Source: an uncultured Pseudomonadales bacterium
GTDB lineage: Bacteria > Patescibacteriota > Microgenomatia > UBA1400 > PJMF01
Assembly: GCA_964653045.1 (NCBI GenBank)
Contig: CAZZBW010000001.1
Coordinates: 617 to 64,616, forward strand
Direction: 5' to 3'
DNA: 64,000 nt
The notes beneath the pieces are model-generated. The model saw only the letters and a list, made by a program, of their open reading frames with translations, was not told the DNA's origin and ran no database searches. Positions within the stretch are counted from its first letter, which is position 1, and each line of letters starts with the position of its first letter. The translations under genes and the position numbers were made by a program. Positions 5,458 to 43,769 of the stretch are shown piece after piece.

Positions 5458-5536
5458 GTTCTACATTAAAGCAAACTACCATACACGAAAGCAAGAGCAA
5501 AAATTCACTACGACGATGTGATAAACTGATATATAG

Positions 5537-6007: not shown

Positions 6008-6045
6008 TGAGAAATAACAAGTTAAAAACTATCGATAAGGAGCAT

Positions 6046-6513: not shown

Positions 6514-6525
6514 ATAGATAAAAAT

Positions 6526-6990
6526 ATGTTCAAACTACCCTCCAGTAAATCAGGTTTTACCCTCATCGAGCTCTTAATCGTGATTGTGATTATTGCCTTG
6601 TTATTGGGAATTCTATTACCCAATATGCTGGGGATGAGAGAGAGGGCGAGGGATAGCGAGACAAAATCAGAGTTGAGAGAGCTCAAACTGGCGGTGGAGC
6701 TCTACGCTGACGAGTTTCAAGGGTATCCAGAAGGACATGCAAATAAAATGTATGGTTGTGGCACTACACCACCGGCGATCTGTAATGATGGTGATGTTTT
6801 CAGGCGAAATGGAATAGATTTTATGCAGGAAATGCCAGATGATTATAATTATGAGCAGCCAGACTCTACCAGTTTTTACATTTGGAAACTCTTAGAGAAT
6901 GAGTCCGATCAAGATATAGAAAGAAGTTGGGCAAAGTGTGGAATTACATCGTCGCCTGACCCGCAGGCTTATTTCGAATGCAGTTTTTAA
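6526..6990 (+). CDS. Type IV pilin-like protein
   Basis: KSG|FTLIELLIVIVIIALLLGIL prepilin motif. Conserved charged segment after the helix (RERARDSE, also present in the other two pilins). Four Cys in the C-terminal half. Confidence 0.7.
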   Translation: MFKLPSSKSGFTLIELLIVIVIIALLLGILLPNMLGMRERARDSETKSELRELKLAVELYADEFQGYPEGHANKMYGCGTTPPAICNDGDVFRRNGIDFMQEMPDDYNYEQPDSTSFYIWKLLENESDQDIERSWAKCGITSSPDPQAYFECSF

Positions 6991-7059
6991 TTTATTTTGT
7001 CATCATGTTACTTGGGACATATTGAGGTTTTGGTGAGATTTAAATTTCGGGATGGGTTA

Positions 7060-10000
7060 CTACTCAGTGAAAAACACTGCGCCATTATTGTAAACCGTCT
7101 GGATTTGGTCTTGAGTCAGGGCGTAGTTGAAGATCTGCACGTCGTCGATTTGACCGTCCCAAGTCGTTGTTGGAGAAGCTTTGCCTGCCCCAATGTACAA
7201 GTTTCCGGTTGAAGTAGTGTCGTACTTAAGGGTTTTGTTTAAGACAACCGATTTTTCCATTTGTCCATTGATATAGATTTTGGCAGTTGCTTGGTCATAG
7301 GTACAAGTTATATGAGTCCAGGTGTTGTTGGGAATATCGTTGACGCTATCAACATCAAGAGCATATGAGTTATCAGTAAAACCTAAAAAGCACTCTACCT
7401 TGTTATCATTGCTCCGGTCATAGATCATTGCATAAGAAGCGAATGGGGCGGCACCATCATTATTATATGTTTTACCAATAATCGACTTTGCTCCAGCGCT
7501 GGTTGTCGTGCGGTACACCCAAGCAGAGTAGGAGATTGAAGCAGGCTCTATAATGCTCGATCTTGGGATAGTAATAAAATCATCCGTACCATCAAAGTTA
7601 AGTGATGCGTTGAACTGCCCGGTGGCACCGTTACCCCAAGCGGTGCTTGGGGTGGAGCAGTCGCCGGCGGCGGTTTGCGCACCGCCGCCAGTCCCACCCC
7701 AAGTCCCATTTAAGTTAGCATCATATGTTTCGTTGCTGGAGTGAACCGTGGTGCCAGAGCACTCGTCCATTTTGTAATGAGCGACTGGATCACCGCGATT
7801 GTAATCCCAGGCAATCTGTGCCGGTGTACGGGCGTAGTTAAAGATTTGAACGTGATCAATTTGGCCTTCAAAAGGATAAGCTGTGTCAGAATCCCACCAA
7901 CCAGCACCAATTTCAATTTTTTCTCCTGCAAGATTGGGGGTACAATTTGAAAATTGATTCGAGGTGGTTTTTTCTTCGCCATTAATATAGATTTTTGTTG
8001 TCGAAGCTATCAATCCTGGACTTTTCACTACAGCGACGTGGTACCAATTGTTATTCTCGGTTATTACTTGTGTGCTGGTGTTTTGTCCACAAGTACCTGT
8101 ATGTAGTCCAATTCGACCACTGCCAGCGCCTGTAACACTGAGAATAATTGCTGCATGATTTCCAGTTCCTGTTACGGTTGGTAAAACACCGACAATTACC
8201 TGGTTTTCTTGTGTGTAGTCAGCGGGATTGATCCACGCCTCAAATGTTCCAGCAAAGTTTCCACTTAGTCCTGTATTGTTACCTGCATATTTAACATAAT
8301 CATTACTTCCATCAAAACTTAAAGCTTTGCCAATTTTGCCGTTTGTCCAGACGGGATCAGTAGTATCAGACCCAGAAGTTGATCCAAGCTGGCCAGTGTT
8401 GGCGTTGCCAGTCGTATCGTTGGTTACTTGGCCAGTACCCTCATCCAACTTCCACTCCGCCACAGGCGCACAACTGCCCGTACTATCTCCAGGTGGGCAG
8501 TACGAGCGGTCACTAGCATTTGAGGCTTCGCCTGACGCATCTGTTGAGAGCGCGCCCATGACGGTGGCTTTGCCCATGTTGAACTCGGCTTGGATTTGGG
8601 ACTCATCCAGAAAATGATTGTAGATTTTTAGCTCGTCGACGTTGAAGTTACTTGCATAATTTCCACCGTTTCCACCAATATAAAGAACGTCACTATAGTT
8701 ATAGACAGTTCCAGTCACTGTGGTTTCTCCCTTAAGTGAGCCGTCAACAAAAAGTCTTAGTTTTCCTGTACCTGAGTCATATTGACACACATAATGATTC
8801 CACTCTCCCAATACGCCGGAGTTATTCACAGCAAAGTTTGCGAGTGAAGTGTTTGCCAGCATACAACCGAAGCTGTTTGAGGCATTAGGTACTATTCCCC
8901 CATGAAATCCAAATTTTGCTATGGTTACTGAGTTTCCCCCATTGGCGTTTTTCTTCAACCATGCGCTGATTGAAAAAGAAGAAGTGCCTGAGTCAATCAA
9001 CCCAGGTAAATTCATCGTTGCATAATCACCATCTGGATTAGCAGCGCCATCAAACGACAATCCTTTGTCAAGTTTACTATTGTTATTCCAGCTAGGGCAG
9101 GTTGTTGCTCCAGGACAGGCTCCGCCCATATCGGCGTTATAACTACTACCCCCACTACCGGAATTGTGAAGTGTCTCGCCATAACCCTCGTCAAATTTCA
9201 AATGGACTAAGGCACTGCCCACCGGACTACCGGGCGGGGGATGCCCGGCGTTCATGTCTTCCACGATTTGTTGGGAAGTGCGGGCGTAGTTATACAACTT
9301 AATATCGTCAAGTTTTCCTTGAAAAGATCTAGTGGTGTAGTTGTAAATCGACCCACCAATCGAAAGTGGTTGACTAGTGGCAACATTGAGGACAATTGAT
9401 TGAGAGGTTTTTTGTTGACCATTTAGAAACTGCTTAATGTTCTGACCGTCATAACTGACAGTAATGTAATTCCATTCTGATAAATTGCCCGTTACTCCAG
9501 TGGCTGAAAAACCGTAGGTCTCAAAATTGAAGCTAGTATCAGTTACTCCGACCCTGGCGCTATTGTATCCACCTGACACATGAGTACCCCAGCCAATTGC
9601 AATATCTTCATAAGATTGTTGCCCCGAATCTTCTGCTTTTGCCCAGAAGCCAACGGTCCATGGTTTGTTAGAAACAACACTTTCAATAGATGCGCTAGAA
9701 TTGACGTTTAAATAATCGGCTCCATTAAACTGAAGACCAGAACTATACTGGCCAACTGTCCAACTGGATTCTGACATGGAACCTTCCATTGTTCCAACAT
9801 TATCTTTTCCTGAGTAATCAAAAGCGGATGTTCCCGTACCCTCGTCAAATTTCCAGTATCCGATTGGTCCTGGCGCCCAGTTGTAGAGAGCTTGAACTTC
9901 GGCGGGGGAGAGGGCGCGGTTGTAAACCCGAGTTTCATCAATGTTACCTTTAAAATTTTGCGAATAGGTACTATGACCTGAAGCACCTATGACAAAAGGA

Positions 10001-13000
10001 TTTGTAGTAGTCAGATCTCCAGCTGTGTCCGGAACTGTACTAACCAACGCTCCATCAAGGTAAAGGTAAAGGTTTTTTGTGTCTGAAACCATTACGCCAT
10101 GGTGCCACAATGTATCTTCAACGCTATTTGGAGAGGCCGCCGTAACTTTACTTGTGCCGTCACCAATTACCGCCTTTAACACACTTCCACCGTAGTCACG
10201 ATCAATATATAAGCTGTAACCTGGACCACTATCGTAGTTATCGCTCCATTTTTTATCAACAATCTGTTGGAAACCGGTAGAACCGGTGGATTTAAACCAA
10301 GCGGAAACTGTGAATTGATCGCTATCGGTCATGCTGAAATTATTACCGAAATTAACCACATCACCGTCTGCGTCAAACAATCCGCCATTGCTGTATTTTC
10401 CGGTACTGATGGTTGCATTGGTAGATGTTCCATTTTTACTGTTGCCGCTGCTATCTAGTACCTCACCTGAGGTACCGTTCCAGCTGGCCTCGTCCATCTT
10501 CCAGTAGCCGACCAAGCCTTGGCCGAGGGCGCCTTCGGCGCCATCACCGATGAATCCCGCGCTGATTCCTTTGACGCTGCCTCTGGCAGCGTACTCGGTC
10601 ATAATTTGAGTCGTATTTAGCGCATAGGTATAGACGCGCACCTCATCGATGAAACCTTTCCACGGATTACTACTGCCATCGCTATCGATGCCAACATAAA
10701 ATGTGGTGTTACTGCCGGACAATCCTCCTGTGGCTGTCAGTGCAGTAGTGACCATCTTCATTCCATCCACATACACATTAATACTATCTGTTTCTTTGAC
10801 CGCAGTGATGAAGTGCCACTCGGAATCGGCAAAGCTATCAGTCGAGCAAGCCGCGTCGTTTGGCCCCCAAGTGCTGTCGTCATCCACGCCAAAACAGACT
10901 TGCCCGCTGGCATTCATGTAGAGTTTGTACCCACTGGAAGAGTAACGACTGATCAGTGTTTGTTGAGCGCTGGCACCCGATGGGGCTTTAAACCAAGTTG
11001 AGACAGTGAAAGGTTTGGTAGTCGGATCGAGCTCAATGTCATTGTTGTAGGTTTTGGTCACGTAATCATTGGTGCCGTCAAACTGGAGACTTTTGCCATC
11101 TGGCGCGGAGCCGTACTCATCATCAGACCAAAGCGCCCCACTAATAGTGGCATTATTACCTTGATTGGAGCTATCGTATGCGATCTCGCCGAAACCATCG
11201 TCAAACTTCCAGAAAGCTACTGGGCCCTCCTGACCAGAAAACTGCTCAGTGTAATCAGTTTGCAGTTCGTGTGAGCCCAGGCCGGAGTAGTAGAGCGAGG
11301 CGACTTCGGAGGCGGTGAGGGAAGTTTGAAATGTTCTAAAATCAGATATATTTTGGTTTGCAATTATTGAATTGACTGTTCCGAGCCTAAAACTTGATGG
11401 AGTTGACATTGTATAGCTAGCATCAGTGCCATTAAGGCTTCCGTTTGAATAACCTCGAAGATTGGATCCGTCCCACGTAATAACATAATGCATCCATTTT
11501 TTAATTGGTGCTGCAGTTAAATTAACACTTCCGTCATTAGCGACATTAATATTAAAATCAACTTGATTAGTGCTTTGACAATTGTTCGTTGATGAAAGAA
11601 CTCTAAGAGCCCCTAAGCCTGAGCCAACATCAATCAAGCCACCTCCGTAATTCCAGCCCCTTCCTGTTCCATCCCAGCAATGATTAAGTTTTATCCAAAA
11701 AGATATTGATCCTGAGTTTTGTAAAATATTGTTTGTAGCGCTAAACGACAAATTGTCGACCTGCCTAGTGCTTGATGAATCATGCTCTGATGATAACCAG
11801 GAGTATCCAGTTCCCAAACTCCCATCAGCATACGTAGTCGCATAGGCCTTTTCCTCCAACTGCACGCCATCGATATAGATAGTTTTGCCAGAAAGAGCCT
11901 GGACGCCGTAGTTGCCGGAGGCATTTGCGGTAGCCGCTGAGTAGGAAAGTCGCCACCAGCCCCCGCCCATATCGGTATAGGCACTTGGTGTAACAACAGA
12001 GCCATTGAACACCAGCTTGGCCGCGGTGGCAGAAACCGCGCCACCCACATTACCTGTCGTGCCATCGTACACATAAGCAGATAGAGTATGAGTGTTGGTA
12101 TTGCCAGGGTTGATTGAAGTCACATACCCTCGACCATCTCCCCCAATATTGACTAATTTAGCCGAACTAGTGGCGAACTTACTGTATGGAGAAGTAGTGT
12201 TCTGAGAGGCAGAAATTGGTTCTGGGGCCAGTGCTGCATCTCCCTGATTTGCTCCGTTGGAATTTGAACCCCAGTAGGCAATGTTGGGGGCGTCGGCAAA
12301 GGTACTGGGGATAGACGACAAGGTAATCCTAGCCGTGCCGTCCACTGACAGCACCATCGTGCCGCCGCCAGTGTACGTAATTTGCATGGCATAAGTGGTG
12401 CCGGCGCTGATCGCGCCAGTGGCAGTCCAGGTAGAACTGGTGACTGTGCCGCCATTCATCTGATACTCTAGTCTCAAGGTGTTGGCGGCACTCCAGTACA
12501 GAGCAATGTAATCTGTGGCGCCACTCATCAGCTTGGCAATGTATGGAGTCGTTTCACCAAACTTGGCAACATCCGCCGCTGAGTGGCGCGGCGTGTACGA
12601 GAAATTAATCGTACCTGTGCTAGCCGTGAGTGAGGGTAGGGTATGGGTGTAGGTGTCCTTACCATCAACACGAAGTTGGTCAGATTCGGTGGAGGAAGAT
12701 AAGGAAGAGGGACTAACGATCACCATTGCAGGGTTTAAAGTGTATGAGTAAAAATCATCCCAGTCTGAAGTTGTCCCCCCACTTGCTCCAGATTGAGCCT
12801 GTCCCGAGAAGTTGTTTGAATTTACTGCTTTTACTATTCCGTTATATCTTTTCCAAACCAAGTTGCTATTTTCCGCACCCATTGAAAAACCACAGTTTGG
12901 ATCAGTTGGAGAACAGTAGTTTGTTTGCAATTGGAAACCCGTATTGTAATTACTTCGAAAGTATTGTGGGTAGGTTGGGGTTCCATAATCATATTTATAA

Positions 13001-18672: not shown

Positions 18673-18673
18673 A

Positions 18674-27600: not shown

Positions 27601-30600
27601 TTTTAACTGCTCCAGTAGCAGAAAAGTATCCCGCTACGTTAGTTGATGTGTTTATACCACCACCTGTTGCTGTTGAATAAATTCCATATCTTGTTTGGCT
27701 GTCTATAGATCCAATTTGTGAAACACTGACTGCTTTTCCACCACTAACCATTGTATCTGCGTATATATCTAAATAAGCTCCCGGACTTGTCGTTCCCACT
27801 CCTACATTCCCCCCCATATCTACCACAAACGGTGTGGTATCAGCATAAGTACCATCATCATTCACCCGTAGAGCTAGAGCACCAGTTCCAGTCTGAGAAG
27901 TAGTAATATTGAGAGCAGTACCAGAACCAAGAGCATCAGTACCAAGTAGCCCTACCTTAAGCGCACTCCCATCTACATCAGCATCTGCATTGTTATACTC
28001 AAACTTAGCCAGATCACCTGTCCAAGTAGAAGCTGGAGCACCTGTAGCAGAGAGATTAAGTAATCCTCCGCTCGATAGAGCAGTAGAAGAAGTAGAGAGA
28101 GAGAACATCGTTCCACTAGTCAGAGAAGTACTACTAGATGTTAGACCTGTACCAGTAGTCAGAGAGTTCCATGTCCAAGTAGAAGTATTAGCTCCCATTG
28201 TTAGTGACTGAGCACCCACTGGACTCTGAATCGCATCCCAGGTAGTACTACCAGTAGAGATAGTTGTCCAAGAAGTATTACCACTCCCATCTGTAGTCAG
28301 CATCTGATTAAGATCACCATCATTAGCAGGTAAAGTCAGAGTCCAATCACCTGCTGCTTCTGCAGGTTGGATTTGAGTGTAACCAGAAGTGTTGCCAGTT
28401 AGCCTGAGCGTTCCTCTACTAGTTCCTGCCGTACCTAGTTGAAGCATGGCACCGGGAGCGGTGGTGCCGATCCCCAAATTACCTGCAAAGTAACCAGCCC
28501 CAGTGGCTCCATCAGCCATGAATTTGGCACTGGCAGTGGAGTTACCACCTACGTAGAGATTGAGAGTGGTGTTGGTGGCGTGTAGACCTTGGTTAGCTAG
28601 TGTCCAGTAGCTGGTGCCTGTGATAGTACTTGGATCCGTCCAAGTCGGGGTGGCGCCGGCACCAGCGGAAGTCAGAAGGTATCCGCTGGTGCCGGCAGAG
28701 CTACCTGGCATGATTGCTCCAGAGAATTGGACATTACCAACGACGTCTAGTTTCTGAGCTGGAGCGGTACTACCGACACCAACATTGCCGGTTGGAACCA
28801 AGAAATTACCGGTACCACTCAGGTTAGCAATGATGTCGCCAGCGCCGTATGTTTTGAGTGTCAGGTTATTACTTTCCCAGGCTTCGCCGACAGTGATGCT
28901 AAATGGCCCATAAGTCTGAATGTTTGAGCTAGTTTGGTTGGTGAAAATTAGGTCGTACGCCATCGACACATCACCTGCAGCGGTGAATTGATGGGGGACG
29001 GCACTGGTGATCTGATTTTGTGCGACAGAAAATACTTCGCTATCGTTGTTATATATTCCCAAAATTTTGCCAATGTTGCCGTATTGACCGACATTTAGCT
29101 TAAACAAGTCGCCGGTGGCATATACTTCGGTGGAACCAGATGGGTTCCAGTTGAGGTAAGCCAAGTTACCGGTCGTCAGAGCAGTTGAGGTTGATTCAAA
29201 ATACAGGCCGTTGCCGGTAGTCAAGCCGTCGAGGCTGACGTTGATACCGTTGCCTGAAGTGATCGAGTCGCCGGTTAGATTAAGCAAACTGGTGGTGTTG
29301 GTACTGACAATGTTGAGTTTGGCATTGGGCGCGGTGGAGCCAATACCGACATTGCCGGCGCTGGTGACATTAAACAAGGAGTTGACGTCGAAGAACGAAA
29401 GAGGTGAAGTGGAGCCAATACCCACATTACCATTATTTAGAATGGTGAAACGCTCGGTCAGACCAGCATCTCCGCCAGTTGAGGTGCGGATGCCGAAGGT
29501 ACCGCCATTGAGGATGTTGAGTTTTGTGGCTGGGTTGGCGCCTGTAGGGACTGCTAGCGCGAGGTTGCCAGAAATACTAGCGGTGGGTGTGCCAGAGTTA
29601 ACGTTGAGGAAGGCGAACTTGGCAGAAGAAGAAGCAGTTCCGCCGATCAGCATATCTAGAGAAGTGTTGTTTGGCGAAATTGTGCCGGCATTTACAGTCC
29701 AGTTGCTGGAGGGGCCACAGTTGCCTGAAGCATCACACACCATTTTGTCGCCCCAGTACAGGCTGCTTGAAGCCGCACCGGCAGCAGCGGAAGTGTTGAG
29801 GACATTGTTGGCGCCAGCCGCCCCCAGGCGGATGGCGCCACTCACGTCTAATTTTTGTGAAGGTGTGGTTGTCCCAATCCCTACATTTCCAGCAAAGTAT
29901 CCTTGTCCGGTTGCTCCATCAGCCATGAACTTGGCAGTGGCTGTGGCATCACCACCCACATATAGATTCAGCGATTGATTAGTAGCAGATAGTCCTTGGT
30001 TAGCTAATGTCCAGTAGTTAGTTCCAGTAATAGTACTTGGATCTGTCCAAGTAGGAGTACCTGATCCAGCGCTCGTTAACAGATAACCAGTGGTACCGAC
30101 ACTACTAAAGCCATATGCAGTCCCAGTAGAGTAAGCAATCGTGCCAGCTGAACCTACAGTAGTAGCATTAGTCCCACCATTTCCAACTCCTAATGTTCCT
30201 GTTACTTCAGCTGATGCTAGATTAATCGCTGCACTGATTAGATCCTTATTAGCATTAGTCTTAACTGGCAGAGAAGCAGTTAGACCTGTGACTCGCACAT
30301 CACCCGCAACTTCCAGCTTTTGAGCTGGGGTGATAGTTCCAATTCCGACATTACCAGAATTAGCTAGAAATATCTGGTTGCCCCCGTCTTGAGATTTGAG
30401 TAACAAACCAGAAACTGTATTTGCCGTACTAATTGTTGCTGGGTTTGTACCGTCATAAGTTGTAAACAATAGCGATCTATTTGCGGAATCTCTGATGCGT
30501 AAGGAACCACCTGTTCCAGCAAGTATGTCAACAAATGAGATGGGATTCGTAGTTCCAATTCCCACGTTTGTCCCGTTGTTATATAGAAGTGAATTAGCAA

Positions 30601-33600
30601 TCCAAGAAGTACCATCATGGCGGAGGGTCTGACCGCTGGTACCAGTGGGGAGCAGCACACTAGATAAATTTGTCCAGACTGGGGCAGTATTCGCTCCTTG
30701 GCTCTGTAAGTAATATCCACTGGTACCAGCTAAGCCGCCTGGCATCAGGGCATTACTAAACTGGAGATTGCCAGCAATGTCTAGTTTTTGAGCTGGAGCA
30801 GTGGTGCCGATGCCGACGTTACCGGTAGTATTTATAACGAATTTTTGGTTCGCCGCATTGTAATCGGTGCCGATTCCGTAACTATATTGGGCACCGCCAT
30901 AAAATACACCAGAAAACCATGATGCGCTTGCTCCTGTGTATTGAATTCCAGCAATGCGGTCTATTGCTCCTCTGGTTAACTCTAAAATGGCTGAATTTCC
31001 TTCAAATTTAGCCATTGTTGCCAAGGATGGACCATTGGTAACATTCAAAATTACGCTTGGACTCGTCGTCCCAATTCCCACATTCCCCATGAAGTGACCA
31101 GCACCAGTGTTTGCATCTGCTCTAAACTTAGCACTGGCGGTGGAGTTTCCACCGATATATAGATTAAGAGACTGATTAGTAGGAGAGAGTCCTTGGTTGG
31201 CTAGTGTCCAGTAGTTAGTACCAACAGTAGTAGGATCTGTCCAAGTAGGAGTACCTGATCCAGCACTGGTTAACAGGTATCCGGTAGTACCAACACTACT
31301 GAAGCCATATGCAGTCCCAGTAGAGTAAGCAATCGTGCCAGCTGAACCGACTGTCGTGGCTCCCGTACCACCATATCCAACTCCCAGAGTACCAGTCACT
31401 TCAGTCGAACCCAAGTTAATCGCTTCACTGATCAGATCTTTATTAGCATTAGTTTTAACAGGTAGAGAAGCAGTTAGACCTGTGACTCGCACATCACCCG
31501 CAACTTCCAGCTTTTGAGCTGGTGCAGTGGTACCGATACCGACGTTGCCGGTAGAACTAATTGCTAACCTTGTCGTAGTTGTCTGGTTAAAATATATTGG
31601 ACCATCGCTTCTTTGATTTGCGATAATTGCAGAAAGACCACTGGCCGCTCCCGTAATTTTAACCCCATTGGATGAATCAAGTGAAGCTCTAATAAGGATA
31701 GATGGGGCACTGCCGGCAACATCTAAATTTGAACCGGCGATCGTCGTCCCAATCCCGACGTTCCCCATAAAGTGACCTGCACCAGTGTTTGCATCTGCTC
31801 TAAACTTAGCACTTGCCGTGGAGTTACCACCGATATATAGATTTAGAGACTGATTAGTAGGAGAGAGTCCTTGGTTAGCTAATGTCCAGTAGTTAGTACC
31901 CACAGTAGTAGGATCTGTCCAAGTAGGAGCTGTATTAGTCCCAGCAGAAGTCAATAGATATCCAGATGTTCCTGCTGCTGCTCCTGGCATGATTGCACCA
32001 GAGAATTGGAGGTTACCGGCTATGTCTAGTTTCTGAGCTGGTACTGTTGTCCCAATCCCTACGTTTGTCCCATCGTTATGTAGAAGTGAGTTAGCAATCC
32101 AAGATGTGCCGTCGTGTCTGAGGGTCTGGCCGCTGGTACCAGTGGGGAGTAACACACTAGACAAATTTGTCCAGACTGGGGCAACATTGGCTCCTTGGCT
32201 CTGTAAGTAATATCCACTGGTACCAGCTAAGCCGCCTGGCATCAGGGCACCACTGAACTGCAGGTTACCAGCTATATCTAGTTTCTGAGTGGGAGCAGTA
32301 CTACCAATGCCGACATTGCCAAGTGGATTAACAACAAATAATGATTGCGATGTTGAATCTTGAATCTGAAAGATATTGGCTGTCTGAGAAGCTGCTCCCT
32401 TAAGAATAAGGGCGTTATCTGTGGCGGTGTTGGACTGTAAGGTAAAATCATCGCTTGTCCAAATACCATTGAATTTTATTAAACCGTATCTTGAAGCAGA
32501 TGCTTGGGGGTATTGGTTAACGGTGCCGCTGGTAGTGTTGTTGGTCAAATACGAGTAATAGAGGTTAGCAACTCCGCCAGTACTGATGTCGTAGTCTGAA
32601 CCCCCAAAATAACTATTTTTTGCATTTACGGTATAGGCACCAGGAACATATAGTCCATACCTGGTGCCAGTAAAGTATCCAACGCTTGACACAGTAGTTC
32701 TCTCAATTGAAATTGTTTGCCAATTGTTGTATATGCCAACGGCGTCTTTATAGTCACCTCTTACCGATACGTTGCTGTCAAATATTGAAAGGGATGCGTT
32801 CGAGCTAAATATTCCATATAAGCTTCCGGAGCCAGTTGTTGATGAAACCGAAATAGACACATCACGGATAATGTTGCCGGATGTCCCTGATCCGGCGCCA
32901 ACTGTTATTGCTGCTACTGATCCGATATCTTTAATGTTTGTTGTATTACTGATTTGAATATCTTCTATCGACGATCCGCTACCAGACAAGTTCACTATAT
33001 AATTTATGCCTGTTCCTGCCGTTCCATCCCCATTTATTACAACATTTCCCGCACGTGATTTAAGTGTCGTATATGCAGGAACCAGTACGTTTTCAGTATA
33101 AGTACCAGGTAACACTTCAACTAAAAAGCGATTGTCTGGTGCTGGTGATTGTGTAGAAACATAAGTCATTGCGGCAGAAATGGTTGTGAAATCACCTTCG
33201 CCGTCAGGATCGACCACGACAGCGTGATCATAGGGACTCAGCATGCCGTCTTGAAATCTCACCTGACCTCCAGTTACGTCTAGCTTGTATTGAGGAGCAG
33301 TCGTCCCAATTCCTACATTCCCCATAAAGTGACCAGCACCAGTATTAGCATCCGCTCTGAATTTAGCTGAGGCTGTGGAGTTACCACCAACATACAGATT
33401 AAGAGATTGATTAGTAGGAGATAGTCCTTGATTAGCCAGTGTCCAGTAGTTTGTACCTACAGTAGTAGGATCTGTCCAAGTAGGAGTTCCTGTTCCAGCA
33501 CTGGTAAGTAAGTAACCTGTAGTACCAACACTACTGAATCCATATGCAGTCCCAGTAGAGTAAGCAACACTACCAGCTGAGCCTACCGTAGTAGCATTAG

Positions 33601-36256
33601 TACCACCATTACCTACACCCAGAGTACCTGTCACTTCAGCACTAGCTAGATTAATAGCTCCACTAATTAGATCTTTACTGGTATTAGTCTTAACCGGTAG
33701 AGAAGCAGTCAATCCTGTAATCCGGACATCGCCAACTACCTCTAGCTTCTGAGCTGGGGAAGCGGTACCGATACCAACATTACCCGTAGTTGGTAAGATT
33801 ACCAGATCTTCTGCAGGAGTAATGGTGATATCGCCATCATCGTTGGCAATTGTTGAGGCTGCGCCAGCGATGTGTAACCTGGCGGCAGGATTGTAAGTGC
33901 CAATACCAACATTACCCATAAAGTGACCAGTACCAGTGTCTGCGTCAGCCCGAAATTTAGCCGTAGCGGTGGAGTCGCCACCGACATAGAGGTTGAGAGT
34001 GGTATTAAGTGCGTGTAATCCCTGATTAGCCAGTGTCCAGTATGTCTCACCTGTGGCCGTCATCTCGATCCAGGTGGGATCGGCTCCAGCGCCGTTGGTA
34101 GAGAGGACATAACCAGCAGTACTTGGGGCAAGGGTGGTCATGGTGCCAGTGTTGTTAAAGAAGGGAATGCTGCCTCTGACCACACTACTCCAGTTCTGAC
34201 CAGTCCCGCCGTTACTGACACCTAGTGCGCCAGTTACTTCTGAACTGGCGAGATTAATTGCAGCACTAATGAGATCTTTATTGGCGTTAGTCTTGACTGG
34301 CAGAGATGCAGTCAGGCCTGTGATCCGGACATCTCCTACTACCTCAAGCTTCTGAGCAGGTGCGGTGGTGCCGATACCGACATTTGTCCCATCGTTAAAA
34401 AGAAGTGAGTTGGCTGTCCAAGATGTGCCGTCGTGTCTGAGAGTCTGACCGCTGATCCCAGTGGGCAGAAGAGTGCTGCTCATATCTGTCCAAACTGGCG
34501 CCGTATTAGCTCCCTGACTCTGTAAGTAATACCCACTGGTACCAGATTGGCCGCCTGGCATCAGGGCGCCGGAGAATCGGAGATTACCTGAGACGTCGAG
34601 CTTTTCTACAGGATTCGAGGTACCGATTCCCAGATTACCAGCCGAATTAATTACGCCAAGAGTAGTATCTGTACTCGTTTTCCATTGGGCAATATCGGCG
34701 GTGGCGGATGGGCCGGCTTTGAGGATGAGGGCGGTGCCACCCGCGTAGGTAGCGGAGAGGGTGGCACCGGGAGCGCTCAGATAGCCTTCCACATCTAAAT
34801 CAGAATTGATTTCAACTTTGCCAATTCCATCAGGGTCAAGGACAATGTCACCGTTCGAGCCGGCCGGAGTTTGGAGAGTCAGGGTCGCAGCTTCAATGGT
34901 GAATGATGTGCCAGTAGATTTGAGTATACTGTTGGACTCAGCAATCAGGATTTGACCGGCGTTGTCCATTACAAGAACAGTATTTTTGGTAGCACCACCA
35001 GTGGGAGCTGGAGGGTAACCTTGGAGCGTTTCGGAGTTGAGGGCATACGCCACTGATTTAATCGCTTGTCGCGGCGTCAGCACCTCTGCGTCGACCTCAA
35101 CCTCCAGCCAGACGTTGGAGTTTTCGGTAAATACTTCATTACCGATCTCGGCGCCGCACTCGTCGCCCAAGCCTATGGAAAAAATACCGTCTTGATCTGG
35201 ATCGACGCTACACGTCCCGCCTGAGTCCCAGAGCAAACTTCCGCCTGTACCTGGGCCGGTGTCGTAGAGATAGAACCGGACTGGAGTGGGGTCAATAATT
35301 GGGGTTTTGGCAATATCGGTTAATCTTCCTTGAAACGAGAGCGATCGATAAGGTCGGGTGAGCTCGGTGGGATAAGCAAGAGAAGGTGTGGCCGAGTCAA
35401 GCCACTGTTGATAGCCAAAAAGGCCTAGAGCCGAGAACAATAAAGCAACTATGGCCAATGTGGTGTAATTGAGCGAAGGTGCGCGGCTGGCGGAATGAAG
35501 TCGAGAGAGGGCGGAATTGAGTTGATACTGCCAGTCCTGATTGGAGCGAGTACTGACAGAACTGGTAAAGTTGTGATCTAAGGTGAGTAAAGGCAGCTGC
35601 CAGAGTTGTTTTTTGTTGGCAGAAGGTGTTTGTTTGGGTGTTTTGGGTAACTTTTTGGTCTTAAGTCCAGAAGCCATTCGGGTTAAGTGGGGCTCCGCCT
35701 GCGCATTAAGAGCAACAATTTCTGAGAAGCCATGTTCGACAAAACCCTCTTTTTGTAGCCATAGTGCAAATTGGGTAATACTCGATAATTTCCTTTTGAC
35801 CGTGCTGATTGATTGACCTTGGAAAAGAGAATTCTCGAGGAAGCTCAATAATTTGGGTTTTGTCAGAATTTGGGTTAGAGAAGATTGCTGGATGAATGCG
35901 ATGAATTGGCCGATATCAGAGCGATAACCCTTAATCGTTTGCGGTGAGCAGTGGGCACGATGGAGTGCTAAAAGATATGTTTGGAGCGCGACTCCAGCCT
36001 GGGAAATGAAATAGAGTCTTGCAAACTGATGGAGCAAGGGTTGGGGCTGACGTTTCGGATGAAGAAAGCGAGAAAGTAAAGCACGGGCGTGTCCAAACAG
36101 ATTTTGAGCCGCTTGGTGATGATGAAGTTCGACCAGCTCATCGATGGCAGCACGAATATCTTGCTCTTTGGCCTCAATTGAGCGACCAAAAAGACCTACA
36201 AGGTCAATGAGGGCAATGAAAGTGCGCTTTTCGGTTGGCATGAGCAGCTTTGTCAA
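18674..36256 (-). CDS. Giant (5860 aa) surface fibril protein: N-terminal integrase-type core-binding domain, one TM helix, then a long tail-fibre-like repeat array
   Basis: Continuous ORF. Residues about 90-180 match the Phage_integrase_N / XerCD core-binding fold. TM LAIVALLFSALGLFGY. At least 30 copies of the GNVGIGTT.P..KL.V.G motif. At least 9 copies of YWTLANQGL...NLY.GG.STASAKF.AD. A tail-fibre-like LDNQHGSYY module. C-terminal coiled-coil region. Confidence 0.8.
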   Translation of the reverse strand: MTKLLMPTEKRTFIALIDLVGLFGRSIEAKEQDIRAAIDELVELHHHQAAQNLFGHARALLSRFLHPKRQPQPLLHQFARLYFISQAGVALQTYLLALHRAHCSPQTIKGYRSDIGQFIAFIQQSSLTQILTKPKLLSFLENSLFQGQSISTVKRKLSSITQFALWLQKEGFVEHGFSEIVALNAQAEPHLTRMASGLKTKKLPKTPKQTPSANKKQLWQLPLLTLDHNFTSSVSTRSNQDWQYQLNSALSRLHSASRAPSLNYTTLAIVALLFSALGLFGYQQWLDSATPSLAYPTELTRPYRSLSFQGRLTDIAKTPIIDPTPVRFYLYDTGPGTGGSLLWDSGGTCSVDPDQDGIFSIGLGDECGAEIGNEVFTENSNVWLEVEVDAEVLTPRQAIKSVAYALNSETLQGYPPAPTGGATKNTVLVMDNAGQILIAESNSILKSTGTSFTIEAATLTLQTPAGSNGDIVLDPDGIGKVEINSDLDVEGYLSAPGATLSATYAGGTALILKAGPSATADIAQWKTSTDTTLGVINSAGNLGIGTSNPVEKLDVSGNLRFSGALMPGGQSGTSGYYLQSQGANTAPVWTDMSSTLLPTGISGQTLRHDGTSWTANSLLFNDGTNVGIGTTAPAQKLEVVGDVRITGLTASLPVKTNANKDLISAAINLASSEVTGALGVSNGGTGQNWSSVVRGSIPFFNNTGTMTTLAPSTAGYVLSTNGAGADPTWIEMTATGETYWTLANQGLHALNTTLNLYVGGDSTATAKFRADADTGTGHFMGNVGIGTYNPAARLHIAGAASTIANDDGDITITPAEDLVILPTTGNVGIGTASPAQKLEVVGDVRITGLTASLPVKTNTSKDLISGAINLASAEVTGTLGVGNGGTNATTVGSAGSVAYSTGTAYGFSSVGTTGYLLTSAGTGTPTWTDPTTVGTNYWTLANQGLSPTNQSLNLYVGGNSTASAKFRADANTGAGHFMGNVGIGTTAPQYKLDVTGGQVRFQDGMLSPYDHAVVVDPDGEGDFTTISAAMTYVSTQSPAPDNRFLVEVLPGTYTENVLVPAYTTLKSRAGNVVINGDGTAGTGINYIVNLSGSGSSIEDIQISNTTNIKDIGSVAAITVGAGSGTSGNIIRDVSISVSSTTGSGSLYGIFSSNASLSIFDSNVSVRGDYKDAVGIYNNWQTISIERTTVSSVGYFTGTRYGLYVPGAYTVNAKNSYFGGSDYDISTGGVANLYYSYLTNNTTSGTVNQYPQASASRYGLIKFNGIWTSDDFTLQSNTATDNALILKGAASQTANIFQIQDSTSQSLFVVNPLGNVGIGSTAPTQKLDIAGNLQFSGALMPGGLAGTSGYYLQSQGANVAPVWTNLSSVLLPTGTSGQTLRHDGTSWIANSLLHNDGTNVGIGTTVPAQKLDIAGNLQFSGAIMPGAAAGTSGYLLTSAGTNTAPTWTDPTTVGTNYWTLANQGLSPTNQSLNLYIGGNSTASAKFRADANTGAGHFMGNVGIGTTIAGSNLDVAGSAPSILIRASLDSSNGVKITGAASGLSAIIANQRSDGPIYFNQTTTTRLAISSTGNVGIGTTAPAQKLEVAGDVRVTGLTASLPVKTNANKDLISEAINLGSTEVTGTLGVGYGGTGATTVGSAGTIAYSTGTAYGFSSVGTTGYLLTSAGSGTPTWTDPTTVGTNYWTLANQGLSPTNQSLNLYIGGNSTASAKFRADANTGAGHFMGNVGIGTTSPSVILNVTNGPSLATMAKFEGNSAILELTRGAIDRIAGIQYTGASASWFSGVFYGGAQYSYGIGTDYNAANQKFVINTTGNVGIGTTAPAQKLDIAGNLQFSNALMPGGLAGTSGYYLQSQGANTAPVWTNLSSVLLPTGTSGQTLRHDGTSWIANSLLYNNGTNVGIGTTNPISFVDILAGTGGSLRIRDSANRSLLFTTYDGTNPATISTANTVSGLLLKSQDGGNQIFLANSGNVGIGTITPAQKLEVAGDVRVTGLTASLPVKTNANKDLISAAINLASAEVTGTLGVGNGGTNATTVGSAGTIAYSTGTAYGFSSVGTTGYLLTSAGSGTPTWTDPSTITGTNYWTLANQGLSATNQSLNLYVGGDATATAKFMADGATGQGYFAGNVGIGTTTPSQKLDVSGAIRLGAAGANNVLNTSAAAGAASSSLYWGDKMVCDASGNCGPSSNWTVNAGTISPNNTSLDMLIGGTASSSAKFAFLNVNSGTPTASISGNLALAVPTGANPATKLNILNGGTFGIRTSTGGDAGLTERFTILNNGNVGIGSTSPLSFFDVNSLFNVTSAGNVGIGSTAPNAKLNIVSTNTTSLLNLTGDSITSGNGINVSLDGLTTGNGLYFESTSTALTTGNLAYLNWNPSGSTEVYATGDLFKLNVGQYGNIGKILGIYNNDSEVFSVAQNQITSAVPHQFTAAGDVSMAYDLIFTNQTSSNIQTYGPFSITVGEAWESNNLTLKTYGAGDIIANLSGTGNFLVPTGNVGVGSTAPAQKLDVVGNVQFSGAIMPGSSAGTSGYLLTSAGAGATPTWTDPSTITGTSYWTLANQGLHATNTTLNLYVGGNSTASAKFMADGATGAGYFAGNLGIGTTAPGAMLQLGTAGTSRGTLRLTGNTSGYTQIQPAEAAGDWTLTLPANDGDLNQMLTTDGSGNTSWTTISTGSTTWDAIQSPVGAQSLTMGANTSTWTWNSLTTGTGLTSSSTSLTSGTMFSLSTSSTALSSGGLLNLSATGAPASTWTGDLAKFEYNNADADVDGSALKVGLLGTDALGSGTALNITTSQTGTGALALRVNDDGTYADTTPFVVDMGGNVGVGTTSPGAYLDIYADTMVSGGKAVSVSQIGSIDSQTRYGIYSTATGGGINTSTNVAGYFSATGAVKNYGLIVDSGNVGIGSTAPAQKLDIVGNLQFSGAIMPGAAAGTSGYLLTSAGANTAPTWTDPTTVGTNYWTLANQGLHPTNTTLNLYVGGNSTASAKFRADANTGAGHFMGNVGIGTTVPTQKLEVVGNALVNNTLYMLDINHSIRAVSGQGVYIDTYGVIDPFFVQQVSGNVGIGTTAPAFKLNLAAATTAVGGIGFGSDTNLYRSAADTLKTDDNLVVGTLGAGSTDTVVTHSSGTLQTRSIDTRVWGTSLVDGSGTNGYNAYWSPDSNTLAAEQYVNVTRGGLGANMTAGGAGEIIYSTGTAAYGHLTAGTSGMALISGGAAAPTWGTLSTTYGGTGQNWSAVARGSVPFFNNTGAMSTLAPSTAGYVLSTNGAGADPTWIEMTATGGGSYWSLANQGLYPTNTTLNLYIGGNSTASAKFRADADTGTGHFTGNLGIGTTNPTARLHIAGAASTIANSTGNITITPAANLIMAPTAGNVGIGSTNPTQKLDIAGNLQFSGAIMPGAAAGTSGYLLTSAGANTAPTWTDPTTVGTNYWTLANQGLSPTNQSLNLYIGGNSTASAKFRADANTGTGHFMGNVGIGTTSPTYKLTVDSGYIGLSDGYGVSWGTSTIYGYQNSLIGFQTAGSEKMRLSATGGLSLGNGYIVTDPGAGSMIVSGNVGIGTTAPSAMLQLGTAGTSRGTLRLTGNTSGYTQIQPAEAAGDWTLTLPANDGDLNQMLTTDGSGNTSWTTISTGSTTWDAIQSPVGAQSLTMGANTSTWTWNSLTTGTGLTSSSTSLTSGTMFSLARSGAGLTTGGKLLNIDMGAATAGNGATIATTGIYTGTGLLTLTANSATTGTLSSISGTALTSGTALSITAGGTGLTGNALYVTSPSTSAFSNGGVRFNFTGAHTGNGFQLDDATATGNAMAINVNSLTTGKGLAISSSTLSSGSLLDLVTTSTAATGSTQKGLNISLSGTNVTSAQTTYGAYITNTHAGTTSTNVGLYASATGGTTANYAAIFANGNVGIGTTSPSAKLRVVGGYSDISDSGTPPSSGAFGTAMGHLSGSYGWIQTYGSTPLILNPLASNVGIGTTAPSYKLDVVGNGQFIYGSNGNALRLGGVSSGLDFNVYNSYAILTTEASNQALALQTNGGNVGIGTTSPGNKLAISGSSTGSIGAFIDNTNTAGYGVLRINSGNADAAVGAALHSIGSTYSGSGAYAPLTTALVGYDSGGLSLTANNAAGVISMFTAGSAAGNERLRISANGNVGIGTTTPSAKLHINGDLKLATGANVNYIATTVGATGDDTTLVTEQGIREAINAGGPIGGGWTDDGSVVRLTTVGDLVGIGTTSPGGKLDIADGQLALILGADSGASTRTNATQKWGRFGGYHYTNAEEPVAIATTQSENGYNILHFGGGTPAMNATTYMLFYTAANGTTTTGTERMRIDSAGNVGIGTTNPLQKLDVDGNIQIASANESTDPVLFLSDRDSLTTEGLKFTYDNSTGASYIDNLYNNDNGDIFIRTKTAVAPINALTIKGNGNVGIGTTNPNAKLRVQDALASGAYGFGAIFQTRLTGTATAGVGLISDYQTTSTTASTTTAGALQASQMSAITTGTQYTIGGQFSGWSSGVNGATTHSIGGRFQAGGNVTSGTINAYGVYIQNALSMNLTGTSTNYGLYVETPTGADTNVAAYFGGNVGIETTNPNNFKLQVSGDIGGQTNNTSKLGSSAIRFANIYSVLGNYSGQITSSLAVGTSPFAVTSTTLNTNLNADLLDNQHGSYYMPASTDNWVNITGDTMTGTLNFSGVASDITTATNEHLSLMPAGTGNVGIGITNPLGKLQITGDEVRIGSGGTINSATGDGDLYVQDALEVDGDTALRNTIVIGNVGIKTSSVLSGVNLQLGGNSPAGVFYLKTTSNSNGANLGEIAFGGLDSGFAEQEYASMNANIVSSTAGSEIGRLDFNTFAGGSDATRLSISGDNVGIGTTAPASKLNIVTSLDGSSYTANLTNTSTGTSASNFLQFGNNASSDLFLVGLRGSAYTGEGNDALIWNRAGSNIRFGTNNSLKMILTASGNLGIGTTTGAGQKLEIYGGNLKINANNAGILGGATNTSTAGFIYMAALDDDKMFRFWTDSATAQYNTAEGGGWSSASFDYAEKFPYVNETSVSKGDLVSVVANDGVIETLDRASRQYDENLVGIVSTQPGFIGGIPWDDSEGENKKSPNLEKAVALAGRVPVKVSTINGPLKTGDRVTSSNLPGIGMRSSQAGFSAGYVLQNFNPDPASCQYVASAEGILWPDFPKGGSPLEYTKDCYRLPDGTLIGKVIAFVNPGWFDPDTSLTSVSQLSLSHTADSSYDVYDPSGQKINRVSAFSQSMIGELTAGLVLSKEIFVEDKLVSPIVESNQIITDQLASRNITTNSLEFKGDTGKILASVDATGKASFTEAVINRVSIPTQALISNLVANSISATNVAADALSVGGKSLSIYVREIVDEALANTSGLIASIPEILQLSDLVVNRRAEINELEVNTLAINQIPIDQYLDERIAQRLSAVSPTPTPSVTDPVSFDPTQPTLLGELNAQEVTVSGGLSASSVTTTTVDTQNLVADSGSFELELKATDLEATAARFDVIESNLAKIDEVTALTASLANATVSGTLYVENIADLDQHIAEAFTQPSLSELFFNEKSEITQELDQINQLIASLDSTVQELSSFDKSLEELSLTEEEVVLNGSALFIEEYFRVNGTGYIAESLGIGQQLNIGNKVQLTENYLAFTANPEAEGELAIFQIQPSGKGVLSIMAGLMTLDETGLVNITGNLHVAGDITTEGSLLSNLLQPVDFGNPFQVQVAGASSESGELKNSRFEIVDATGAPVATISAQGRAEFAGGIGIGSEDLSDQSASASADTVINTDKTSGKAVLPAGQSLLVIETSAITDKSLVYITPLGSTQNQVLYVASQQPDQEIITEATEEKPEETVIIPGHFSVAVDQALDTDLQFNWWIVN
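25241..25590. repeat. About 350-bp intragenic repeat, copy A (near-identical to 28114-28463)
   Basis: Direct comparison of the two stretches shows 1 mismatch over about 350 bp. Both lie inside the 5860-aa ORF and encode the same about 116-aa segment (...GAMLQLGTAGTSRGTLRLTGNTSGYTQIQPAEAAGDWTLTLPANDGDLNQML...). Confidence 0.85.
28114..28463. repeat. About 350-bp intragenic repeat, copy B
   Basis: See copy A. The copies lie about 2.9 kb apart, in direct orientation and in frame. Confidence 0.85.
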
Positions 36257-36739: not shown

Positions 36740-37486
36740 ATGAAAAAGTCATCACTCAAGGTTCTTATTAGTCTGGGGGCGTTAGGTTTACATTCTGCCC
36801 ATCTCGACGAGAATTACTTATCAGTAATAGTGCCCGAGCTGAGCATTAATGGGCAAAGATCGTTGATTTATCATCTAAAGCGATCTTTCTTGGTTGAACA
36901 GTTCCGACCTGCCAAAGGAATAAAGAGCTTGCGAATTACAACTGGGGGGATGAGAGTGTTGAAGGCTGAATTTCCGGCTCTCTTTCCTGAAAATGGAAAG
37001 AGAGCCGGATGGCACTGTATGGTGTTCGTTAAGCCGCCAAAGAATGACCCGGCTTTTCGATATCTGCGTTCCCAGGTGATAGCAGATGGAGGTATCAATC
37101 TAACTAGAGGGGTATATCTCAAGCAGTCGCCTTATTCGACCAAGCTGATGATGATGTGTGACAAGCTGTACGCCCAAGCAATCAGTATATTTTTGATAGA
37201 TTCTTGGATATTTGGGTTTGATTCGCTATATTTGGAGAAAATGCAGGGAGCAGATACCCATTTTTCACTACTGTCTGGTGTTAGCAGTGAAATAACTCAA
37301 TTGCTAAGTAAAATTAGCAAAGATAATATTGCGCAATATCAGCGAAAAAAGTTAATTGAGGGTCTGTTAGAAAGATACTATGCAATTACTCTCAATTATC
37401 CATACTTTACCAATAACGAATTCTCTCAATATATCTCGACATCGAACGTATATTTACAGGTGGGAGAGCTCTTAAAATTATTGTGA
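36740..37486 (+). CDS. Hypothetical protein, possibly a winged-helix (PaaX-like) regulator, divergent from the giant gene
   Basis: 248-aa ORF after a 480-bp AT-rich intergenic region. Weak resemblance to the PaaX N-terminal wHTH (SLIYHLKRSFLVE...LRITTGG). No strong motif recognised. Confidence 0.4.
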   Translation: MKKSSLKVLISLGALGLHSAHLDENYLSVIVPELSINGQRSLIYHLKRSFLVEQFRPAKGIKSLRITTGGMRVLKAEFPALFPENGKRAGWHCMVFVKPPKNDPAFRYLRSQVIADGGINLTRGVYLKQSPYSTKLMMMCDKLYAQAISIFLIDSWIFGFDSLYLEKMQGADTHFSLLSGVSSEITQLLSKISKDNIAQYQRKKLIEGLLERYYAITLNYPYFTNNEFSQYISTSNVYLQVGELLKLL

Positions 37487-40401: not shown

Positions 40402-40424
40402 ATTTGGCTTAAAGTTAATATTTA

Positions 40425-41903: not shown

Positions 41904-41973
41904 ATTTTGACAACAAAAAATCTGCTAATTCGTCCATTGTAGTCAGGTCAATGGATACTTTGCAATAGGCAAT

Positions 41974-42966: not shown

Positions 42967-42969
42967 TTA

Positions 42970-43746: not shown

Positions 43747-43769
43747 ACAATTTACCCAATTTGCTTGTG

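Follow-up and report, generated by a model that had tools for sequence, protein, structure and literature searches.

A giant membrane-anchored, tail-fibre-like protein at a conserved pilus-gene locus of Patescibacteria, and its lineage-specific LamG-rich companion

We describe two giant, adjacent genes in a stretch of 64,000 nucleotides (nt) of DNA from a bacterium of the Patescibacteria type (contig CAZZBW010000001.1, assembly GCA_964653045.1)—this whole stretch is called the window, and all coordinates refer to it. The two open reading frames (ORFs), ORF-A and ORF-B, are read from the minus strand. ORF-A encodes a tail-fibre-like protein and is a core gene of a locus that is syntenic in dozens of species; ORF-B, which follows it, encodes a protein rich in LamG domains. 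The genes and their junction lie as follows.

18674..36256, minus strand: ORF-A, 5860 amino acids (aa) from the listed TTG start, a giant membrane-anchored tail-fibre-like protein
7060..18672, minus strand: ORF-B, 3870 aa, a membrane-anchored, LamG-rich, putative surface protein
18670..18676, minus strand: the A/B junction TAA-t-ATG, read in the sequence and recurring in two contigs of a related strain (L088 and L089)

Both frames are intact, with 0 internal stops in the translation of ORF-A and 0 in that of ORF-B. Read in an off-frame, this DNA shows 151 stops in 2960 codons; given this stop density, the chance of frames this long remaining open is about 1e-133 for ORF-A and 1e-88 for ORF-B. 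The base composition and third-codon-position GC content (GC3) of the two genes equal those of the remainder of the window, and no RNA genes were found within the giant-gene region. Homologs of ORF-A begin with MPAR or MTAQ, which in the N-terminal alignment stand opposite MPTEKR of ORF-A, at an ATG at 36241; the listed TTG is therefore judged too early, and the true start is probably this ATG, five codons later, for a protein of 5855 aa.

At the junction the letters read GTT AAT TAA t ATG AAA—the stop of ORF-A (18676-18674), a spacer of 1 nt, and the ATG of ORF-B (18672-18670). A GGTGGA resembling a Shine-Dalgarno (SD) site lies 12 nt upstream of this ATG, within the codons for the conserved WWI residues of ORF-A, and a scan of the coding strand found no terminator-like site at the junction. 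Promoter and terminator scans at the start of ORF-A, the junction, and the end of ORF-B did not rise above shuffled expectation and are thus uninformative either way. The same junction, FNWWIVN-TAA-t-ATG-MKYR, is present in the two Joint Genome Institute (JGI) contigs of the related strain, which share 89% nucleotide identity with the window and have an ORF-B N-terminus that is 90% identical. A preliminary description of the window had reported two ORFs of 5860 and 3870 aa at these positions, separated by a single nucleotide and most likely forming one transcript. The ORFs and the single nucleotide are as described, and co-transcription of ORF-B with ORF-A is plausible in view of the spacer, the SD-like site, the lack of a terminator-like site and the junction shared by the related strain.

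The protein encoded by ORF-A can be divided, from its N-terminus to its C-terminus, into these parts.

35744..35980, minus strand: tyrosine-recombinase core-binding (SAM-like) domain, predicted to be cytoplasmic, aa 93-171
35405..35467, minus strand: single transmembrane (TM) helix, a signal anchor, aa ~264-284 by hydropathy (helix at 258-282 in a structure model numbered from aa 6)
34997..35389, minus strand: juxtamembrane beta-sandwich with two invariant Cys, aa ~290-420, from alignment and model (predicted local distance difference test score, pLDDT, 80-89)
21377..34759, minus strand: repetitive shaft, aa ~500-4960, in which NVGIGT-type motifs occur 37 times (median spacing ~98 aa)
32387..33259, minus strand: right-handed beta-helix insert, aa ~1000-1290 (Pfam Pectinesterase, 28.4 bits, cutoff 27)
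20642..21226, minus strand: G2-type intramolecular-chaperone-like (beta-tulip) domain, aa ~5011-5205, with an FDYAE motif
18677..19939, minus strand: family-defining C-terminal domain ending in FNWWIVN, aa 5440-5860 (~420 aa), from alignment

Hydropathy gives exactly one strongly hydrophobic segment in ORF-A (aa ~261-283), and the protein is predicted to be a type II (N-in) membrane protein with ~260 N-terminal residues in the cytoplasm. This cytoplasmic region is basic in all homologs (isoelectric point, pI, 8.9-10.4), and two tandem copies of the core-binding domain occur in some relatives. Downstream of the domain come a linker and then the TM helix. No catalytic integrase domain was detected in ORF-A: there is no Phage_integrase match, and the XerC and XerD models match over their first ~94 positions only. 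Past the helix, on the predicted outer side, lies the juxtamembrane sandwich with its conserved Cys pair, which is the best-conserved stretch of the N-terminal alignment of the family (LAYPT..RxLSFQGRLT...PDQDGIF...LNSETLQGYP).

The shaft is a mosaic of repeats that share 28-87% identity, and 22 of its 37 motifs have the full consensus GNVGIGTTxPxxKL. A profile that includes these repeats matches the MAT fibres of Bdellovibrio via NVGIGT..KL.V (8ond, Bd2133, E 8e-9; 8ojn, E 3e-4); matches of the shaft to phage tail-fibre proteins are weak (E 1e-7). An enzyme at aa ~1000-1290 was rejected—the Pectinesterase match covers profile positions 2-65 only and no signature motif was seen by eye, and we therefore take it to indicate a beta-helix fold. 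The G2-type domain has the fold of the C-terminal fragment of phage gp12; a sequence search against the Protein Data Bank (PDB) returned nothing significant for it. In 29 homologs three of its residues, D5016, A5018 and E5019, show conservation of at least 90%; they are candidate counterparts of the catalytic residues of gp12. A helical stretch leads on to the C-terminal domain, for which a sequence search of the PDB gave no match; the C-terminal 876 aa of ORF-A likewise have no match in 50,697 phage genomes.

ORF-A belongs to a large family that is mislabelled in public annotation. A search with the N-terminal region returned 36 proteins, nearly all from Patescibacteria and nearly all cut off at contig ends, many of them named 'site-specific integrase, partial'; the integrase name is due to the core-binding domain, and the family is mislabelled in this way because short-read assemblies break inside the gene. 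A scan of the species genomes in GTDB gave 386 relatives. We retrieved 80 loci with a limit of 10 kb per locus: 22 A-like genes end inside (607-3322 aa), and 16 are still open past 3,700 aa. Ten full-length orthologs (1702-3322 aa) have in common the N-terminal region as well as the last ~500 aa. With the C-terminal domain as query, an exhaustive search yielded at least 746 clusters at E<=1e-3 and 352 at E<=1e-10; with few exceptions among the 150 listed matches, the domain sits at the very C-terminal end of the protein. Among the top 149 matches, 37 proteins have at least 3000 aa and 9 at least 5000 aa, with a maximum of 7697 aa; the A-type N-terminus is also present in 57 of the 71 matches of at least 1500 aa. 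The family thus defined ranges in length from 1,500 to 7,697 aa.

At the site of the G2-type domain many orthologs instead carry Peptidase_S74 (33-50 bits, cutoff 22) with Ser-x4-Lys spacing. Members of at least 1000 aa (n=89) have either the G2-type (43) or the S74-type domain (31), never both (0), and 15 have neither. Since two unrelated chaperone modules of phage fibres occupy the same position, we argue that this site serves to trimerise and fold the fibre. The closest full-length relative of ORF-A (P0111, 3137 aa) is 69% identical in the juxtamembrane region and 65-69% at the C-terminus, against 36% in the cytoplasmic part, and its shaft is not colinear with that of ORF-A. In the related-strain contigs, compared with window 18051-28216, the last 487 aa of ORF-A are 94% identical and the G2 domain is 27% identical. 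This difference suggests that fibre modules are shuffled between strains; the pattern points to recombination of modules between strains, or to collapsed short-read contigs. In the same contigs, a segment like ORF-A aa ~2680-2820 is located just ~1.4 kb upstream of the C-terminal block. We also observed that two homologs of the N-terminal region (P0013 and P0020) have an intein (PF14890) directly after an NVGIGT..KLxVxGxC fibre motif—an unusual place for an intein, within a secreted fibre protein.

In the literature searched we found no description of the architecture or size range of this family, nor of its fixed place between a pam-like operon and pilin genes, and papers about huge proteins or about the giant genes of Omnitrophota do not treat it. 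Giant surface proteins of ultrasmall symbionts, LamG adhesins, and tail-fibre-like fibres of bacteria preying on other bacteria are already known kinds; the architecture for which we found no description combines a core-binding domain, TM helix, sandwich, hypervariable MAT-type shaft, internal S74 or G2 domain, and FNWWIVN terminus.

ORF-B is built differently, with these parts.

18370..18438, minus strand: single TM helix, aa ~79-101, after a highly basic, predicted cytoplasmic tail of 78 aa
17362..17862, minus strand: eighth LamG domain, aa 271-437
12298..17037, minus strand: beta-rich modules, aa ~546-2125, with no Pfam match
7078..11763, minus strand: array of seven LamG/ConA-like domains, aa 2304-3865, from Pfam and a local domain map

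Here too hydropathy gives exactly one strongly hydrophobic segment. Pfam Laminin_G_3 matches ORF-B in 9 stretches (E 6.3e-166), with 8 domains mapped locally, and ~1,850 aa have no Pfam match. A DUF2341-like domain follows the TM helix by resemblance only; two homologs carry PF10102. The protein contains an internal duplication (aa 546-1250 and 1289-2125), within which aa 764-923 and 1505-1664 are 93% identical. The preliminary description had given both proteins a short cytoplasmic N-terminus, one TM helix, and a huge extracellular part, fibre-like in one and lectin-like in the other. Single hydrophobic segments with a predicted N-in orientation, the NVGIGT-type motifs of ORF-A, homologous to MAT and phage tail fibres, and the LamG domains of ORF-B all agree with this; the short N-terminus fits the 78-aa tail of ORF-B and does not fit ORF-A, with its ~260 aa and folded domain. 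The profile hidden Markov model (HMM) search that it had proposed found Laminin_G_3 in ORF-B, and in ORF-A the core-binding domain and a match to PF11962 (Peptidase_G2) below its cutoff.

N-terminal homologs of ORF-B are all of the Patescibacteria type, from 629 aa upward, and are found at unrelated loci of other genomes (L003, L004 and L006). The closest, in L003 (JGI 3300027924, 1741-10315; 65% identity in the N-terminal region), appears to be split into LamG fragments by transposase/insertion sequence (IS) genes and genes for AAA_14/DUF4143 ATPases. An obligate A-B pair was rejected as an explanation, as none of these three contexts has an A-like neighbour. ORF-B is also absent from L087, the locus of the closest full-length ORF-A relative. 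A LamG gene directly after the A-like stop was seen in 1 locus (L073) of ~12 with the stop visible, among the 80 loci; this B-type gene (TM, DUF2341-like, LamG) begins 6 nt after the stop. Because most relatives, L087 among them, have no gene in the slot that separates the A-like gene from the pilins, and L073 has a B-type gene there, gene order identifies ORF-B as lineage-specific cargo in a variable slot and not as an obligate partner of ORF-A. The preliminary description had presented the two giant genes as a pair, and in this it needs correction: they are not a conserved unit, ORF-A being the part that belongs to the syntenic locus.

The surroundings of the giant genes include the following.

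36740..37486, plus strand: 248-aa gene divergent from ORF-A, beside the A-like gene in 57 of the 80 loci
37791..44471, minus strand: six-gene pam-like pilus operon, upstream of ORF-A on the same strand, in 55-57 of the 80 loci
5537..6990, plus strand: three type IV pilin genes, convergent to ORF-B and ORF-A (N_methyl, PF07963, E 7e-5 to 2e-8)
11..949: ATP synthase alpha/beta-family gene

Comparison of the window proteins with the 80 loci by tblastn gives a shared order: leucyl-tRNA synthetase (LeuRS), six genes on the A strand, the 248-aa gene on the opposite strand, the A-like gene, the variable slot, the trio of type IV pilin genes in convergent orientation, a TPR protein with multiple TM helices, Obg, and an M23/LysM peptidase. 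The G-F-[TS]-[LM]-I-E N-methylation motif of the class III signal peptide can be seen in the pilin sequences, and pilins follow the A-like stop in 8 of 8 genome-scan loci with a full-length A-like end inside, as well as in L087. The convergent pilin genes and the small genome noted in the preliminary description are both borne out: the DNA is of the Patescibacteria type, and related complete records have 0.98-1.17 Mb. The 248-aa protein has no Pfam, NCBIfam or PDB match and lacks a TM helix; it might regulate the gene for the fibre.

The six upstream genes have the architecture of a pam operon, with secreted pilins, chaperone-like proteins and a TM anchor. Two encode secreted pilin-like proteins that have a Pam pilin C-domain in common, one a membrane coiled-coil protein, two chaperone-like products that carry a signal peptide as well as a TM helix at the C-terminus (compare PamC and PamD), and one an Ig-rich protein with a C-terminal TM helix (compare PamR). 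The protein at 42970-43746 scores 28 bits (E 1e-6) with the NCBIfam models CPR_pilus_PamT and CPR_Pam_pilin_C, whose cutoffs are 240 and 55, and the protein at 40425-41903 reaches 19 bits, below cutoff; the Pam scores are thus significant yet under the curated limits. Among 39 orthologs of the upstream genes the Pam models are the sole families matched (in 14 and 6 members, best E 6.5e-12), and orthologs of four of the six genes match Pam families only. A recent preprint reports ~21% identity between a PamA homolog from Microgenomatia and PamA of M. amalyticus, as well as a 'tail fibre-like protein' consistently found beside the pam operon of CPR (candidate phyla radiation) bacteria (Troman et al. 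2026, bioRxiv 10.64898/2026.03.03.709456).

Several other features of the region are recorded here for completeness. Within the pam-like operon, the ORFs at 39349-40401 and 37791-39413 (minus strand) overlap by 65 nt as listed, and the downstream gene probably starts at a later codon. The TPR protein (3322-5457, minus strand; 711 aa, ~10 TM helices, C-terminal TPR) stands beside the pilin trio in far-reaching syntenic loci and might be a pilin-modifying or pilus-assembly membrane protein. A third giant gene for a putative surface protein (55530-62279, plus strand) encodes 2249 aa, with seven Ig_Rha78A_N domains and a hydrophobic segment at the N-terminus; tblastn places a match to its product in L057, L060 and L077, there flanked by the A-like gene and the conserved genes that come next. 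ComEC (47906-50103, plus strand) is divided between two ORFs with an overlap of 4 nt, one for the Competence domain and one for the metallo-beta-lactamase, with ComEA just upstream. A PIN-domain toxin gene (54268-55307, plus strand) adjoins a tRNA-Arg gene (55311-55383, minus strand), and the small ORF upstream of it that is called in an independent contig (L001) is likely an antitoxin. Many GTDB records with this Patescibacteria-type locus, within L007-L086, are titled 'uncultured Pseudomonadales bacterium', 'Limisphaerales', 'Methylococcaceae' or 'Vitreimonas'; such titles look wrong for the gene content of the contigs, or the contigs are mis-binned.

The reading that we favour, with a probability of roughly 0.7, is that ORF-A forms a trimeric surface fibre and ORF-B an accessory adhesin, which together with the pam-like pilus operon serve in attachment to a host or partner cell. 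ORF-A would be inserted N-in and exported via its signal anchor, leaving the beta-sandwich at the outer face; the internal chaperone-type domain would help it to trimerise, as in phage fibres; and the shaft (~4,460 aa) would project as a fibre of ~0.18-0.27 um, about cell size, at the rise per residue of MAT fibres. We scaled this length from 370 aa of MAT fibre at ~145 A and from ~550 A for a fibre assumed to have ~900 aa; MAT fibres are experimentally trimeric surface adhesins (dimensions and trimers from PMC10769870). ORF-B, from the same transcript, would add lectin domains at the surface, and both proteins would act with the Pam pilus and type IV pili to find and hold the host cell.

Several points weigh against this reading. 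Trimer formation by ORF-A is a prediction from homology and fold alone, and surface exposure, glycan binding and a role in host attachment are likewise proposals. The Pam assignment of the upstream operon consists of sub-threshold HMM matches and architecture. PF11962 matches ORF-A with 18.4 bits (E 0.0015), below its cutoff of 25, which relatives do pass (37.4 bits in L034, 28 bits in P0039). About 650 conserved residues follow the chaperone-type domain, which in phage and MAT fibres is C-terminal. The distal end of the family is conserved and the shaft hypervariable, the opposite of MAT and phage fibres, and a tip that acts as a host-specific receptor binder therefore fits poorly. Finally, a model of adhesion only leaves the cytoplasmic core-binding domain without a role. 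Owing to the conserved distal end, the internal chaperone-type domain and the core-binding domain, two alternatives for ORF-A keep some weight: a signalling or DNA-tethering device, and a part of a pilus apparatus. From the same points, autocleavage may release the conserved C-terminal piece.

According to the former, ORF-A would be a transmembrane device whose core-binding domain binds DNA and whose fibre acts as a sensor, in the manner of ToxR-type membrane-bound regulators or of the MyRF transcription factor, or it would tether DNA at the envelope while DNA is taken up. In MyRF a membrane anchor occurs together with a DNA-binding domain and a chaperone (ICA) domain of the S74 type, which speaks for this idea, as do the basic cytoplasmic region of all homologs, the tandem core-binding copies of some relatives, the intergenic region shared with the conserved divergent 248-aa gene, and ComEA and ComEC 11 kb away. 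We nevertheless consider it unlikely: close relatives differ most in the cytoplasmic part (36% identity, compared with 65-69% in the juxtamembrane and C-terminal parts), DNA binding by the domain and a target site are hypothetical, and, because the chaperone-type domain is extracellular, another protease would have to free the core-binding domain in the way seen in MyRF. Such a device is also compatible with an adhesin and does not exclude it. A bolder version, to which we likewise give little credence, makes the family an undescribed class of envelope protein that links a DNA-binding-type domain in the cytoplasm to a giant phage-type fibre outside; contact between fibre and host would be passed on through the membrane to DNA—via force, regulated proteolysis or oligomerisation, for gene regulation or for incoming DNA—and in this version the internal S74 or G2 domain would also cleave itself, releasing the conserved C-terminal piece of ~650-840 aa as a separate product. 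In the latter alternative ORF-A would be the base, anchor or tip adaptor of a Pam or type IV pilus and not an independent fibre. The tight linkage to the pam-like operon, seen in 55-57 of 80 loci, and the convergent pilins at all eight visible ends and in L087 could be read in this way, the preprint sees the same co-localisation (bioRxiv 10.64898/2026.03.03.709456), and the conserved juxtamembrane and C-terminal domains suggest conserved partners of the cell itself. However, ORF-A has its own membrane anchor, its shaft is homologous to free-standing trimeric fibres, and the oppositely oriented gene in between places it in a transcription unit separate from the pam-like genes; in the published Pam model, moreover, PamR already serves as anchor and PamT as tip, and no fibre is required (bioRxiv 10.64898/2026.03.03.709456). 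We consider a pilus part an unlikely identity for ORF-A.

Less probable still is that the size of ORF-A, or a part of ORF-B, is an artefact of assembly, whether by expansion or collapse of repeats or by chimeric joining of shorter repeat genes. Independent contigs were retrieved via the small flanking genes; an exact look-up of ORF-B in public assemblies had found nothing. Logan contigs from runs SRR8925802 and SRR8925769 are 100% identical to window 1-13732, 83-8096, 32220-39226, 35318-38339 and 39226-57128, matching the last 2223 aa of ORF-B and the first 1340 aa of ORF-A. Window 13733-32219 lies outside the independent contigs found, and the exact repeat count there is provisional, which counts against the favoured reading as well. 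Repeats stop short-read assemblies—one such contig (L090) ends beside the downstream copy (13688-14084) of the internal duplication of ORF-B—the closest full-length relative of ORF-A reaches just 3137 aa, and in the related-strain contigs the modules upstream of the C-terminus stand in a different order. One near-identical DNA repeat, the only such pair, has copies at 25236..25609 and 28098..28471 (374 nt, 98.9%, 2862 nt apart); as these lie in frame, gain or loss of a 2862-nt unit would pass unseen, and a collapse or expansion could thus be hidden here. On the other hand, both frames are uninterrupted, all remaining DNA repeats are at most 93% identical and shorter than 500 nt, and Tandem Repeats Finder detected no tandem arrays, the repeats being dispersed and diverged (internal protein repeats were mapped by chunked BLAST; a whole-protein self-BLAST gave the identity match alone). 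The junction and both outer ends have independent support, other assemblies hold full-length members of 5,000-7,697 aa with the same N- and C-termini, and the worst case is one 954-codon unit miscounted. The least credible alternative, which we regard as highly improbable, is that ORF-A is a prophage or phage-derived tail-fibre gene carried as mobile cargo, or a site-specific integrase. It draws on the S74 and G2 chaperone-type domains, the tail-fibre-like repeats, and the core-binding domain behind the integrase names; yet ORF-A has SAM-like matches only, followed by a TM helix, its C-terminal 876 aa are unmatched in phage genomes, and the chromosomal synteny beside LeuRS and Obg is kept across dozens of species. 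Integrase, prophage tail fibre and foreign island were all rejected for ORF-A on its native composition, the lack of a catalytic integrase domain, and the count of 0 phage genes in the window.

Patescibacteria, or CPR bacteria, make up a large share of bacterial diversity. To our knowledge, all cultivated members live attached to other microbes. The ORF-A family offers a candidate for host contact, now with a full architecture, a size range and a conserved gene context, and it links to known appendages: the recently discovered Pam pilus operon and type IV pilins. It also displays an evolutionary pattern in which the length of the shaft and the downstream cargo gene vary between close relatives while the ends of the fibre are fixed. 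A core-binding domain on a surface fibre could, in addition, point to signalling across the envelope. A host-contact function of ORF-A and ORF-B would match what is seen in cultivated Patescibacteria and for the LamG giants of DPANN archaea.

In topology, ORF-A resembles ToxR/CadC-type proteins and MyRF, which have a cytoplasmic N-terminus of the DNA-binding type, one TM helix, and a large outer part. A difference is that the chaperone-type domain of ORF-A is predicted to lie outside, at a great distance from the core-binding domain, and DNA binding and cleavage are hypothetical. The giant LamG proteins of DPANN nanohaloarchaea and of CPR bacteria (PMC10266531, PMC11573180) are, like ORF-B, membrane-bound with many ConA-like/LamG domains. 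Another likeness is that ORF-B takes up a large share of a tiny genome and stands in a putative operon with a fibre-like adhesin candidate; it differs from the DPANN giants in being bacterial, in lacking SPEARE-type ATPase/protease modules, and in its ~1,850 aa without a family match.

Closest in gene context is the pam-linked 'tail fibre-like protein' of the preprint (bioRxiv 10.64898/2026.03.03.709456), which has the same surroundings, including a nearby ATP synthase subunit gene. That system is from a Saccharimonadia species, and the ORF-A locus is of the Microgenomatia type; the preprint gives no sequence, architecture or size for the protein, and from the neighbourhood we infer that it belongs to the ORF-A family. 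Among phage appendages, the relevant relatives are gp12 of phi29 (Peptidase_G2, PDB 3gqh), and the endosialidase and T5 pb1 (Peptidase_S74), whose genuine S74 domain with Ser-x4-Lys occurs in orthologs of ORF-A. Phage fibres match the shaft weakly and the C-terminal region not at all; ORF-A, in contrast to them, is cellular, membrane-anchored and embedded in conserved chromosomal synteny, with ~650 conserved residues after the chaperone-type domain.

The MAT fibres of Bdellovibrio bacteriovorus (Bd2133, Bd3182 and Bd2439; Caulton et al. 2024, PMC10769870) are the nearest counterpart of the shaft. Their bearer belongs to a different phylum, and they measure ~1,000 aa, compared to 1,500-7,697 aa in the ORF-A family. 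The MAT N-terminal domain is absent from ORF-A (NF053851 Bdello_MAT_N, E 0.064, 13 bits, cutoff 60), which has a core-binding domain, TM helix and juxtamembrane sandwich in its place. The tips of MAT fibres are variable and terminal; in ORF-A the terminus is conserved and the chaperone-type domain internal, with 655 residues to follow. Nevertheless, the shaft repeats are homologous and share the motif sgNVGIGTtaPtsKLhV, and the MAT family, like that of ORF-A, includes members with an S74 chaperone as well as members without it. Both families resemble phage tail fibres and both are mosaic, with modules swapped between strains—and just as MAT fibres stand on the surface of a bacterium living on other bacteria, so probably would the fibre of ORF-A.

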